Assembly (NCBI RefSeq): GCF_003018255.1
Contig: NZ_CP027440.1
DNA: 64,000 bases
Origin: Escherichia coli
GTDB taxonomy: Bacteria; Pseudomonadota; Gammaproteobacteria; Enterobacterales; Enterobacteriaceae
Direction: 5' to 3' (one strand)
A model generated the notes under the pieces. It was not told the origin of the DNA. It saw nothing but the letters and a program-made list of their open reading frames with translations, and made no database searches. Positions 18,320 through 21,372 of the stretch are shown one piece after another (the stretch's first letter is position 1; every line of letters begins with the position of its first letter). The translations under genes and the position numbers were made by a program.

Positions 18320-18347
18320 GCTGGCGTGGAGTAACACGCCAGCGTTA
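18320..18347. terminator. Hairpin between convergent guaC and hofC (putative bidirectional terminator)
   Basis: GCTGGCGTG-gagtaa-CACGCCAGC inverted repeat. Confidence 0.55.
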
Positions 18348-19547
18348 TCCCATCCCACTCATCGCATCGCCTAAATGGAAAATTGGCAAATACATTGCCA
18401 CCACTAGCGTACCGATAATTCCTCCCGTTATGACCAGCAACACCGGTTCGAGCAAGGCTGCAAGGTTATCCGCCAGCGCCATGGTGTTATCCCGATGATG
18501 ACGGGCGAGGTTGTCTAACATGAGATCCAGCGAACCGGATGCCTCTCCTGTTCTCACTAATTGCAAACAGAGCGGGCTAAACTCACCGGCATTTTTTAGC
18601 GCCAGCCAGATGGGATGACCGTTACTGATATCGTGCTGGATTTGTGTCAGAAGTTGCTCCCAATACGGACAGCGCATTGTTGCTCTGACGCTCTCTACGC
18701 CCTGTAAAAAAGTAATGCCTGCACTTTGAGTCAGCGCCAGAATCGTAAAGATCTGCGTGAGTTTTTGTCCTCGCATCAGTGAACCCATAATTGGGATGCG
18801 TAACAGTGATTTTTGCCTCACGATGAGCCAGGTCGGGCGGCGCATCAGCAACTTATTGGCTATCGCCAGCAGAAAGCCGAACAACACCAGCAGCCAGCCC
18901 CATTCGCCACTAAAGTCTGCCAGCGTCATGATCCCCTGCGTTAGTACCGGTAGTGGGGTGTTGAAGGTCTTATAAATAGCAGCAAACTCCGGCAGCACAA
19001 AATGCAGCATTGCCACAACCACCATGATTGCCATCGCTAAAATGATGATGGGATAACGCAACGCTGATTTCACTTTATCGGCTAACTGACGTTGGGCTTT
19101 TTGCTGTCGAGCAAGTTCAAAGCAACATTCATCTAACTTACCAGTCAATTCCCCCGTGCGGATCATTGCCTGATAGAGCGGCGGAAATACCTCTGACCAG
19201 GGTAATAAGGCATTGGAAAAAGCAATGCCCTGTTCGAGATCGTGCGCCAGCGATTGCAGCAACGCTTGCCATTGCTTACTGGGATGCTGTTCCGCCAGCA
19301 GTGCCAGCCCTTCAGAAAGCGTTAACCCGGCTTTGAGTAGCGTCGCCAGTTGATGAATGACTTCCGCGCTTTTATCTCCTCGCCACTGCGCAGAATTGAT
19401 GGCGATTCGCTTCAGGCTAAGTGGGGTAACCATCTGTTGCTGTAGTGCTATGAGCAGCAAAGCACGGCTCTCTGCCCATAGCATCCCATCTTGCGCATTG
19501 CCGCCGCCGGTTATGCCACGCCAGCGCCAGAGTTGCTTACTCGCCAT
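18345..19547 (-). CDS. hofC: Type IV pilus assembly inner-membrane platform protein HofC (PilC/GspF family)
   Basis: 400 aa with GspF-type paired membrane domains; operon hofB-hofC downstream of ppdD. Confidence 0.9.
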   Translation of the reverse strand: MASKQLWRWRGITGGGNAQDGMLWAESRALLLIALQQQMVTPLSLKRIAINSAQWRGDKSAEVIHQLATLLKAGLTLSEGLALLAEQHPSKQWQALLQSLAHDLEQGIAFSNALLPWSEVFPPLYQAMIRTGELTGKLDECCFELARQQKAQRQLADKVKSALRYPIIILAMAIMVVVAMLHFVLPEFAAIYKTFNTPLPVLTQGIMTLADFSGEWGWLLVLFGFLLAIANKLLMRRPTWLIVRQKSLLRIPIMGSLMRGQKLTQIFTILALTQSAGITFLQGVESVRATMRCPYWEQLLTQIQHDISNGHPIWLALKNAGEFSPLCLQLVRTGEASGSLDLMLDNLARHHRDNTMALADNLAALLEPVLLVITGGIIGTLVVAMYLPIFHLGDAMSGMG

Positions 19548-20922
19548 GCGGCATTCCCAATACGCGGATTAACTCTTCAAAGGTGGTTAAGCCTTGCTCC
19601 ACGGCCAGGCAGCCGTTTTCAAAAAGCGTTCGCATACCCGCCTGTCGGGCGTGCGTTTCCAGCGATTCAACGTCGGTATTAGCGGAAATAAGCTGACGTA
19701 TGAACGGTGTTATGGGCAGAACTTCAAATAAGGCCGTGCGACCATAAAAACCGTGGTAGCAATGTACACAACCGGGTGCTTGCCAGCGGGGCAGCGGCGA
19801 CGGCCATACATTGTCTGGAATATGGATGGGCTCCCCTTGCTGCAGGCGGCAATGTGGGCAAAGTTTGCGTACCAGACGCTGGGCTATTACCAGCGTAAGC
19901 GCCGATGAGAGCATCCAGCGGGCGACTCCCATTTGCTGTAAACGTACCAGTGTTTCAGTGGTGGAATTGGTGTGTAGGGTAGACAACACCAGGTGACCGG
20001 TTTGCGCCGCTTTAATAGCGATCTCTGCTGTTTCGCCATCGCGGATCTCTCCGATCATGATGACGTCAGGGTCCTGGCGCAATAACGCACGCAAAACGCC
20101 CTGAAAGGTAAGACCGGCACGCGGATGGATTTGCGTCTGGTTTAGTCCGGCTATGGGGATCTCAACCGGATCTTCGACGCTACAAATATTAATGTCAGCG
20201 GTATTCAGCGTTTGCAGGGCACTATAAAGCGTGACCGTTTTGCCGCTGCCTGTAGGGCCAGTTACCAGCACCAGTCCCTGTGGTTGTTGCAAGGCATGAG
20301 CAAAGTCCGCCAGTTGTAACGGCTGCATCCCCAGCGTGTTGACATCCAGTGCCTGGCTCACCTGCTGTAACAACCTTAATACCACCTTTTCACCACCCCG
20401 ACATGGTAAGGTCGCAATACGAAATGAGATGGCGTTTCCTGCCAGTTCGACAGTGAATTGCCCGTCCTGCGGCAGGCGATGTTCCGCAATATCCAGGTTG
20501 CCCAGCACTTTTAATCTGGCGGTTAATGCGACTCCGGCATCCGGTAAAACATCCGGTAAAGGATGCAATACACCGTCGATACGCAAGCGGATGCGGTAGG
20601 CATTGTCCGCTGGTTCGATATGAATATCAGACGCGCGTTGTTCCAGCGCAGATTGTAACGTTCGAGTCAGCAACTCTGCTTTGGGCTGATGCTTCTCATG
20701 AATAGCTACGGGCAATGTCTGTTGGGTGCGACTGGCGTGACCTTCCATTTGTTGGCGCGTCCAGCAGGTGATCTCAATACGTTTGGTGGTAGCGAAATGC
20801 AATGCGTCCAGTAGCTCATGCGAAGGGGCATCGACCACCGCAACATGAACCACCTCTTCGCTGGCATCCAGCAAGACTCCCTGATAACGCAGACACAGGG
20901 CGGTGAGCTGTGGAATATTCAT
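19537..20922 (-). CDS. hofB: Type IV pilus assembly ATPase HofB (PilB/GspE family)
   Basis: 461 aa, Walker A GPTGSGKT, CPHC...C..C tetracysteine. Confidence 0.9.
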   Translation of the reverse strand: MNIPQLTALCLRYQGVLLDASEEVVHVAVVDAPSHELLDALHFATTKRIEITCWTRQQMEGHASRTQQTLPVAIHEKHQPKAELLTRTLQSALEQRASDIHIEPADNAYRIRLRIDGVLHPLPDVLPDAGVALTARLKVLGNLDIAEHRLPQDGQFTVELAGNAISFRIATLPCRGGEKVVLRLLQQVSQALDVNTLGMQPLQLADFAHALQQPQGLVLVTGPTGSGKTVTLYSALQTLNTADINICSVEDPVEIPIAGLNQTQIHPRAGLTFQGVLRALLRQDPDVIMIGEIRDGETAEIAIKAAQTGHLVLSTLHTNSTTETLVRLQQMGVARWMLSSALTLVIAQRLVRKLCPHCRLQQGEPIHIPDNVWPSPLPRWQAPGCVHCYHGFYGRTALFEVLPITPFIRQLISANTDVESLETHARQAGMRTLFENGCLAVEQGLTTFEELIRVLGMPHGE

Positions 20923-20931
20923 TGCCGCTCC

Positions 20932-21372
20932 TTAGTTGGCGTCATCAAAGCGAAAGACATCTTCGCAGGCTTGCTGCAATGCGCTGTCACTTTGAATATT
21001 GCAGTTGCGCGTCCAGCCGGTGACGCCGTTTGCGTTATCCCAACCCGGTGTCATGACGACGCTTAGCCCATTGAGACTTTCTTGCCCGGTCAGCGACACC
21101 ACGCCCTTTGCCACACTCATGGCTGAAACATAGCGGGTGGTGGTAGGCGAGGGAATGCCATTGCTGCCACCGTCGCAGGTATCTAATCCACCATGTTCCA
21201 GCGCGCACAACTCTACGGCGGTACGGTAAGGCACAAAGGTTTGTAGCATGTCGGTGAGTGCGGCTTTGCGCAGGTAGTTTTGATAAGCGGGAATACCAAT
21301 GGCGCTTAAAATGGCAATGATGCCAATAACCACCATCAGTTCGATAAGTGTAAAACCGCGTTGCTTGTCCAT
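20932..21372 (-). CDS. ppdD: Prepilin-peptidase-dependent type IV pilin PpdD
   Basis: 146 aa, class III signal MDKQRGFTLIELMVVIGIIAIL. Confidence 0.92.
   Translation of the reverse strand: MDKQRGFTLIELMVVIGIIAILSAIGIPAYQNYLRKAALTDMLQTFVPYRTAVELCALEHGGLDTCDGGSNGIPSPTTTRYVSAMSVAKGVVSLTGQESLNGLSVVMTPGWDNANGVTGWTRNCNIQSDSALQQACEDVFRFDDAN

Follow-up and report, generated by a model that had tools for sequence, protein, structure and literature searches.

The type IVa pilus operon ppdD-hofB-hofC of E. coli K-12 (b0108-b0106) is the closest described relative of the locus studied here, and the same operon carries the name hcpABC (hemorrhagic coli pilus, HCP) in EHEC O157:H7, for which the T4aP structures PDB 6GV9 and 6GMS are available. 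On Minca medium, EHEC EDL933 was seen to produce HCP, adhesive pili made of PpdD/HcpA (PMC2920817). Pili have been built in E. coli from ppdD and twelve assembly genes, hofB and hofC among them (10.1101/856302). The pilABCD operon of Haemophilus influenzae follows the same logic, with a pilin, a PilB ATPase and a PilC platform protein transcribed together from a CRP-S promoter whose activity requires Sxy and cAMP-CRP, and the E. coli genes have been described as pilA/pilB orthologues or homologues (PMC1635313). H. influenzae is naturally transformable; in contrast, E. coli took up DNA only with artificial sxy expression, which led to processed PpdD and to DNA uptake dependent on the secretin HofQ (PMC3330819). 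The PilA-PilB-PilC type IVa core of Pseudomonas aeruginosa and Myxococcus consists of a homologous pilin, ATPase and platform protein, but unlike in that core, no retraction ATPase gene adjoins ppdD-hofB-hofC.

We compared these systems with a locus at positions 18345–21372 of a 64-kb stretch of E. coli DNA (the window). The ORF listing shows three complete ORFs here, all on the minus strand and together bounded by the hofC stop and the ppdD start. Genes, order, strands, flanks, lengths, junctions and an upstream CRP-S-like site are all shared with K-12, including the arrangement guaC–hofC–hofB–ppdD–nadC. Full-length alignments to the K-12 genes were gap-free, with no internal stops or frameshifts. 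PpdD, HofB and HofC each exceeded the cut-off of their NCBIfam equivalog model with E-values from 8e-81 to 5e-246, which is far beyond chance. The original prediction of intact genes for a major pilin, a PilB-type ATPase and a PilC-type platform protein is borne out by the full ORFs, equivalog scores and motifs, and its gene identities and operon order agree with the ORF limits, NCBIfam/Pfam scores and K-12 synteny. We are therefore highly confident that the locus is the core-genome type IV pilus operon ppdD-hofB-hofC of E. coli (hcpABC in EHEC) in its ordinary, intact form. Its identity is settled by the curated equivalog models and by an identical protein of known structure. Evidence for an operon comes from the gene junctions, a 9-nt gap with GGAG between ppdD and hofB and an 11-nt overlap between hofB and hofC, as well as from the fact that the 90-fold Sxy induction reported for "ppdD" was measured with primers inside hofB (PMC1635313). 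Of the 5,426 complete E. coli genomes, 5,424 contain the locus, and at least 5,418 of the 5,426 keep it over its whole length. No sequence feature within the window spoke against a pilus operon, and an Rfam scan of the whole window placed no RNA family in 18345–21574.

The first gene, ppdD (hcpA; 20932–21372, minus strand), encodes a type IVa major prepilin of 146 aa. PpdD scored 269.3 bits against the NF007862 equivalog (cut-off 138), covering profile positions 1–145 of 145, and also matched Pfam N_methyl (39.9 bits) and TIGR02532 (35.9 bits). A class III signal is present, with the 6-residue leader MDKQRG followed by FTLIELMVVIGIIAILSAIGIPAY, GFTLIE at position 6, F+1 and E+5. Cysteines at precursor positions 56, 66, 124 and 136 correspond to mature C50-C60 and C118-C130, the two disulfides that, together with H54 (here in the motif ALEH), are a feature of the enterobacterial T4aP subclass (10.1101/2021.04.14.439816). 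Every residue reported as essential, namely E5, both cysteine pairs and H54, is in place. The mature protein (residues 7–146) aligns to all 140 residues of the EHEC pilin in 6GV9 chain A (1–140; E = 3e-91), and there are no amino-acid differences from K-12 PpdD (WP_000360904.1; 100% identity). For this identical protein sequence, cleavage, N-methylation and filament polymerization have been shown in other strains (PMC3330819, PMC2920817). At the nucleotide level, ppdD differs from K-12 by one synonymous change and is at least 99% identical in 3,536 genomes, and the protein sequence is identical across distant lineages. We considered a special nucleotide-level constraint on ppdD and rejected it as too weak, since the mean dS of 0.034, against ~0.055–0.059 for the neighbors, rests on ~100 synonymous sites and seven genomes. 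In strain EC-129, ppdD is split by IS5.

The second gene, hofB (hcpB; RefSeq "gspE"; 19537–20922, minus strand), encodes a 461-aa hexameric assembly ATPase of the PilB/GspE family and starts with an ATG 9 nt past the ppdD stop, preceded by GGAG. HofB scored 816.8 bits against NF007755 (cut-off 617) over residues 2–460, with a Pfam T2SSE match (E = 5e-145) and a weak N-terminal MshEN domain. The motifs of such an ATPase were all identified: Walker A GPTGSGKT at 222, the Asp box ICSVEDPVE at 246, Walker B VIMIGEIRD at 287, the His box GHLVLSTLHT at 309 and a tetracysteine zinc motif (CPHC at 355, CVHC at 385). The top PDB relatives, such as 5ZFR, 5TSG and 3JC8, are PilB ATPases (~1e-105). HofB nevertheless falls below the PilB equivalog TIGR02538 (483.9 bits against a cut-off of 675.65), covering only profile positions 168–561, and at 461 aa it is shorter than the ~566–588 aa of PilB of the P. 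aeruginosa/Myxococcus type, to which it aligned only from residue 68–79 onward. HofB is PilB-like in its working, yet belongs to a shorter, distinct subfamily. Codon 380 of hofB is TGG in the window and not the W380* allele, a premature stop that 363 of 5,426 complete genomes carry; the matches listed include ST131 strains such as EC958. With this many genomes sharing a hofB truncation, E. coli strains truly differ in whether the operon is intact. Among papers on hofB and ST131, the titles and opening parts of the abstracts contained no account of a W380* pseudogene.

The third gene, hofC (hcpC; 18345–19547, minus strand), encodes a 400-aa inner-membrane platform protein of the PilC/GspF family that scored 656.2 bits against NF007861 (cut-off 401) and contains two T2SSF domains. 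Hydrophobic 19-mers mark three segments at ~167–185, 212–235 and 369–387. An 11-nt overlap joins the end of hofB to the hofC ATG, suggesting translational coupling of the two genes.

We also analyzed the control region. The intergenic segment between ppdD and the nadC stop (21373–21574, minus strand) carries a ribosome binding site AAGGAG 8 nt ahead of the ppdD ATG and is predicted to hold an activator-dependent promoter. No sigma-70-like promoter was found in 18200–21700, where shuffled sequences gave an expectation of 3.3. A candidate CRP-S core, TTCGTAACGCCTCGCA, lies at 21501–21516 on the minus strand, centered ~136 nt upstream of the ppdD ATG. It matches the consensus TGCGA-N6-TCGCA at 14 of 16 positions, with a perfect right half and two mismatches in the left half. 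The pattern occurred 28 times in the window against 41.7 expected, so that the match at 21501–21516 is not significant by motif alone. This core is invariant among the window, K-12 and chicken strain 104, and all 8 SNPs that separate the upstream region from that of K-12 fall outside it. Window positions 21456–21586 are the counterpart of the K-12 fragment band-shifted by CRP (its primers correspond to columns 15–145 of the upstream alignment), and that fragment was described as having one predicted CRP-S site (PMC1635313). From its position and the literature, we infer that the CRP-S site is at exactly 21501–21516. In K-12, the operon is a member of the Sxy/cAMP-CRP (CRP-S) regulon, and Sxy raises its expression ~90-fold (PMC1635313).

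Taken with the literature, these observations point to the following mechanism, in which ppdD-hofB-hofC would supply three of about thirteen components of an enterobacterial type IVa pilus and DNA-uptake machine. The three genes would be read as one transcript starting upstream of ppdD, from a promoter that lacks a usable sigma-70 consensus and would need both cAMP-CRP on a low-affinity CRP-S site and Sxy (TfoX); this dependence would leave the operon silent in ordinary culture. The PpdD prepilin would enter the inner membrane, where GspO or PppA, encoded elsewhere, would cut after Gly-1 and N-methylate Phe+1. A HofB hexamer would then dock on the HofC platform and power the assembly of PpdD subunits into a filament. 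What the literature reports on induction, pilus assembly, DNA uptake and adhesion would be expected to hold for the window's strain too. The original prediction had left open a role under unknown conditions; most of this role is in fact published (Sxy/CRP induction, DNA uptake, adhesion), and the description still applies only to the natural signal that induces sxy.

The partner genes lie outside the 64-kb window, megabases away by K-12 synteny, and we therefore used their counts in other genomes as a proxy. Both hofMNOPQ and the minor-pilin operon ppdAB-ygdB-ppdC were present in 5,425 of 5,426 genomes. H. influenzae pilABCD also has its own prepilin peptidase gene, pilD. In E. coli, by contrast, the peptidase gene lies elsewhere and varies among strains, gspO being present in 3,158 of 5,426 genomes (58%) and pppA in roughly two thirds overall, with pppA found in all 30 of the closest lineage genomes, strain 104 included. 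Of the partners, only the prepilin peptidase varies in its presence among strains, and these population data make it very unlikely that the window's strain would be missing its partner genes.

Instead of DNA uptake or DNA catabolism, the main selected role of the operon in an avian/APEC-like lineage could be host adhesion and colonization through an HCP-type pilus. EHEC HCP contributes to adherence, invasion, biofilm formation and cytokine induction (PMC2920817), UPEC hofQ mutants are weaker at kidney colonization, and the alleles in the window match those of APEC O78:H4 and other poultry isolates. However, control by the competence regulator Sxy (PMC1635313) and hofQ-dependent DNA uptake (PMC3330819) have been shown directly. 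The major pilin is also near-invariant across phylogroups, unlike surface adhesins that face immune or phage pressure. The diversity of Neisseria and Pseudomonas pilins is the comparison behind this contrast. Our search for APEC-specific data on the operon returned none. We consider adhesion as the main selected role unlikely, although it retains some plausibility, and the adhesion and DNA-uptake roles are not mutually exclusive.

It is very improbable that the operon is an evolutionary relic, intact by chance, without a selected function and heading toward a pseudogene cluster. Such decay would fit with the lack of detectable expression in the laboratory in K-12, in UPEC and in any of the 72 ECOR strains, with the hofB stop in 363 genomes and the IS5-broken ppdD of EC-129, and with dN/dS values and rare codon usage in hofB and hofC above those of the neighboring genes. 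To weigh this, we calculated dN/dS between the window and K-12, which gave 0.109 for hofC, 0.113 for hofB and 0 for ppdD; the means over seven genomes were 0.119, 0.113 and 0.068, compared to 0.03 for guaC and nadC. At ~0.11, hofB and hofC are under purifying selection, although they are less constrained than their housekeeping neighbors (dN/dS ~4 times higher, 8% rare codons). Values of 0.07–0.12 are far from neutral, and the relic reading is further contradicted by the near-universal full-length locus, the identity of PpdD among distant lineages, the almost entirely synonymous character of the recombinant hofC blocks and the published phenotypes of the system. Some lineages have lost operon function, as judged from the W380* and IS5 alleles. 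This loss, together with the weaker constraint, indicates that the selective value of the operon is conditional.

The divergence of hofC raises a further alternative. HofB is identical to its K-12 counterpart at 450 of 461 residues (11 substitutions) and HofC at 384 of 400 (16 substitutions), and the nucleotide identity of hofC is only 95.2%, because of short lineage-private blocks of mostly synonymous differences. Nine amino-acid changes in HofC and three in HofB are private and lie inside such otherwise synonymous blocks. Short recombination imports could conceivably have remodelled the HofC platform in the avian-associated lineage, with a possible shift in motor-platform or pilin specificity, and the pilus might then differ from that of K-12 or EHEC in expression level, dynamics or host adhesion. 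We regard this as highly improbable. Few genomes (80 of 5,424) are at least 99% identical to the locus, and we rejected this as a locus-specific anomaly since guaC behaves alike (89 genomes). The low count of near-identical loci instead reflects a relatively rare strain background that includes chicken strain 104, APEC O78:H4 and similar strains, which suggests that the window's strain may belong to an avian/APEC-like lineage.

A last alternative, that HofB and HofC belong to a type II secretion system and act in protein secretion instead of pilus assembly, is hardly credible. In its favor, the RefSeq product name of hofB is "type II secretion system protein GspE", PilB is homologous to GspE and PilC to GspF, and the matches to the GspE (TIGR02533, 453.9 bits) and GspF (TIGR02120, 263.5 bits) models are strong. 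These scores stay under the cut-offs (630.25 and 424), however, while both proteins exceed those of their own HofB and HofC models. The genes also share a transcript with a type IVa pilin gene and not with the pseudopilins gspG-K, a genuine gspE-gspF-gspG...gspO cluster sits separately in K-12, and the hofB/hofC set served to build PpdD pili (10.1101/856302). Since HofB falls short of the TIGR02533 cut-off, the RefSeq label "gspE" is a family-level name only. The operon, its structure, regulator and phenotypes have already been published and the present copy is a typical intact allele of the pilus operon; what is gained is a clean annotation in which hofB encodes a pilus assembly ATPase and not the T2SS GspE that the label implies.

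A terminator scan returned only weak intragenic matches, with no excess over shuffled sequences (7 compared to 4.4 ± 2.2). On the guaC side, folding identified a GC-rich hairpin with a perfect 9-bp stem, GCTGGCGTG-N6-CACGCCAGC, at 18320–18343 (no strand assigned), which the scan had missed because a T-run is absent. The hairpin, which has no U-tract, sits in the 34 nt that separate the stop codons of the convergent genes hofC and guaC and has a folding energy of -18.1 kcal/mol (z = -2.75 compared to shuffles), and it is probably a bidirectional transcript-end structure.

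We observed that the genes of the type IV pilus operon lie exactly where the original prediction had placed them; 18345-21372 runs from the hofC stop codon to the ppdD start codon. All three are uninterrupted ORFs on the minus strand: ppdD (20932-21372, 146 aa), hofB (19537-20922, 461 aa) and hofC (18345-19547, 400 aa). They are flanked by guaC (17267-18310, plus strand) and nadC (21575-22468, minus strand), beyond which lie ampD, ampE and aroP. K-12 and strain 104, the chicken isolate whose genome matches best, share this annotated arrangement of flanks and operon. The products exceeded the cut-offs of the corresponding NCBI curated equivalog models: PpdD with NF007862 (269.3 bits, cut-off 138), HofB with NF007755 (816.8 bits, cut-off 617) and HofC with NF007861 (656.2 bits, cut-off 401). 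Pfam assigned N_methyl to PpdD, T2SSE and a weak N-terminal MshEN domain to HofB, and two T2SSF domains to HofC. The generic PilB, GspE, GspF and PilC equivalogs were also matched by HofB and HofC, yet below those models' cut-offs. By sequence, HofB and HofC form enterobacterial subfamilies of their own and are predicted to be PilB- and PilC-like in action. RefSeq PGAP names hofB 'gspE: type II secretion system protein GspE' (loci L001-L008). Since its GspE score is below the cut-off and the HofB-specific model is passed, this is a family-level name only. K-12 has a true gspE-gspO cluster separate from hofB, and a gspE symbol on both hofB and the true T2SS ATPase could mislead automated T2SS/T4P surveys.

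The claim that the operon is intact was confirmed by full-length alignments to K-12, which have no gaps or internal stops in any of the three genes. PpdD is identical to K-12 WP_000360904.1, whereas HofB and HofC carry 11 and 16 residue changes, respectively. On motif inspection, the PpdD leader reads MDKQRG followed by FTLIE. The mature protein has the cysteine pairs C50-C60 and C118-C130 and an ALEH motif with H54; these residues are reported to be essential for stability and assembly (10.1101/2021.04.14.439816). All 140 residues of the EHEC pilus structure 6GV9 are matched by mature PpdD of the window. HofB has its Walker A motif (GPTGSGKT) at 222, Asp box at 246, Walker B at 287 and His box at 309, and keeps both CxxC pairs (355 and 385); HofC has three strongly hydrophobic segments.

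Operon intactness is not universal in E. coli. In two of six extra genomes sampled, hofB is a RefSeq pseudogene with the lesion W380* (TGG to TGA), a change that costs HofB its second CxxC and its last 81 residues. A 63-mer carrying this stop had an exact match in 363 of 5,426 genomes; among the 40 matches listed, named ST131 strains include EC958, in which hofB is annotated with an internal stop, JJ1886 and several O25b:H4 isolates. In L007, L008 and L014, RefSeq marks the W380* hofB as a pseudogene, and ppdD and hofC are intact; W380* genomes would be predicted to be without a T4P assembly ATPase. No report of W380* was evident in the titles and abstracts of literature naming both hofB and ST131. 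EC-129 (L009, 4001-5640), in which ppdD is split by IS5, is one of only about six genomes lacking a full-length ppdD. In the window, hofB codon 380 is TGG (~19783-19785) and ppdD has no insertion.

No partner gene lies in the window, because K-12 synteny puts these genes megabases away. K-12 sequences were used as probes across 5,426 complete genomes, and hofMNOPQ and ppdA-ppdB-ygdB-ppdC were each found in 5,425. The prepilin peptidase gene gspO (K-12 locus L012, 6480-7157) was present in only 3,158, and pppA (K-12 locus L013, 7480-8289) in roughly two thirds, a share estimated from the extra matches gained once pppA was joined to the hofC query. Of all the components that make up the E. coli T4P, only the prepilin peptidase varies. 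A chimeric query of window hofC and K-12 pppA gave a second match in all 30 of the closest lineage genomes, strain 104 included, and PppA is therefore available in the lineage as the alternative peptidase. Judged from the genomes of relatives, it is very unlikely that partner genes are absent from the window's strain.

The hofB ATG lies 9 nt 3' of the ppdD stop, preceded by GGAG, and the hofC ATG lies inside the end of hofB with an 11-nt overlap. These junctions fit co-transcription and translational coupling, and the 'ppdD' induction of Cameron and Redfield, measured with primers within hofB, gives independent support for co-transcription (PMC1635313). The gap in which hofC and guaC converge is filled by a 9-bp hairpin with perfect pairing (18320-18343; -18.1 kcal/mol, z = -2.75); it lacks a U-tract, so it is a putative terminator. 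No sigma-70-like promoter was found within 18200-21700, versus 3.3 expected in shuffles. On the minus strand, TTCGTAACGCCTCGCA (21516-21501) is a candidate core for CRP-S, the low-affinity type of CRP site, and lies upstream of ppdD at ~136 nt from its start codon; compared with TGCGA-N6-TCGCA, its right half is perfect and its left half has two mismatches. The window-wide count of CRP-S motifs is no greater than chance, so the match of this 16-mer alone is no proof. It is unchanged among the window, K-12 and strain 104, and falls within the K-12 ppdD fragment corresponding to 21456-21586. PMC1635313 describes weak but specific binding of purified CRP to that fragment, with one predicted CRP-S and no CRP-N site. 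We infer that the published site would correspond to these bases. In K-12, ppdD is induced 90-fold by the competence regulator Sxy, with an absolute need for CRP and cAMP, and is repressed by glucose (PMC1635313).

Early searches for a ppdD transcript or pili in K-12 were negative, as PMC1635313 and PMC2649431 relate, both citing Sauvonnet 2000. When sxy is expressed artificially, processed PpdD appears and DNA is taken up, the uptake being lost in a hofQ mutant; competence-gene homologues are needed for growth with DNA as the only carbon source (PMC3330819, the latter from Palchevskiy and Finkel). EHEC EDL933 on Minca medium produces PpdD/HcpA pili that are adhesive and pro-inflammatory (PMC2920817), EHEC ppdD-hofBC expressed in K-12 brings pilin to the surface, and UPEC hofQ mutants show reduced kidney colonisation (PMC2649431). 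Pili have been built in E. coli from ppdD and 12 genes: hofB, hofC, hofMNOPQ, ppdA, ppdB, ygdB and ppdC, as well as gspO (10.1101/856302). The original prediction is supported in its interpretation, but the 'unknown conditions' under which it left a role open are thus largely known: regulation and roles are substantially published, and the natural sxy-inducing signal remains the one gap by the account of PMC3330819. The window carries a typical intact allele of an already known system.

Of 5,426 complete E. coli genomes, 5,424 had the locus, and in 5,423 it was full-length. Only 80 reach at least 99% identity to the window over the locus, largely from poultry/APEC (O78:H4 included) with human, pig and environmental isolates; guaC is equally rare (89 genomes), so this reflects strain background and not a peculiarity of the locus. 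At the same threshold, ppdD matched 3,536 genomes and hofC 67, with 1,757 at just 90-95%. Against K-12, dN/dS was 0 for ppdD, 0.113 for hofB, 0.109 for hofC, 0 for guaC and 0.042 for nadC (seven-genome means 0.068, 0.113, 0.119, 0.029 and 0.034). All three pilus genes are under purifying selection, weaker on motor and platform. Rare codons are more frequent in hofB and hofC, which together with their weaker constraint is as expected of rarely expressed genes. Differences private to the window lineage cluster in hofC, 14 in 19067-19216 and 10-11 in 18317-18466, versus 1-2 there between K-12 and a B2 strain; these blocks differ from every other lineage sampled and are common only to strain 104-like genomes. 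Because their differences are nearly all synonymous (dS up to 0.22), the blocks look like small recombination imports, not decay, which would make the lineage's hofC an outlier allele.

Elsewhere in the window, ~3.9 kb of low-GC DNA between aroP and pdhR (25400-29780) is not in K-12. Its ORFs, all on the plus strand (25900-27681, 27681-27977, 28136-28372, 28375-28668, 28826-29065 and 29066-29356), encode a 593-aa protein in which Hcp, the tube protein of the T6SS, is fused to an S-type pyocin domain and a DNase domain of the colicin/pyocin kind; after it come three immunity genes of colicin type, alternating with two orphan C-terminal pieces of DNases. The segment is an Hcp-borne toxin/immunity island of the T6SS that carries a cassette array, found at a coverage of at least 80% in 1,046 of 5,426 genomes. 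Four Rfam matches above gathering score, none touching the pilus operon, are PssrA (9052-9141, plus, 104.9 bits), STnc40 (14788-14857, plus, 83.2 bits), naRNA4/CssrE in the mutT-yacG spacer (15373-15450, plus, 73.5 bits) and tp2 just downstream of pdhR (30621-30734, minus, 103.4 bits). Minor allele differences from K-12 were seen in mutT (14872-15270; 132 aa in the window and strain 104 versus 129 aa), in yacH (37237-38884; 93% identity, 8 gap openings) and in nadC, whose mechanical ORF (21575-22510) opens 14 codons upstream of the start annotated for the 297-aa protein.
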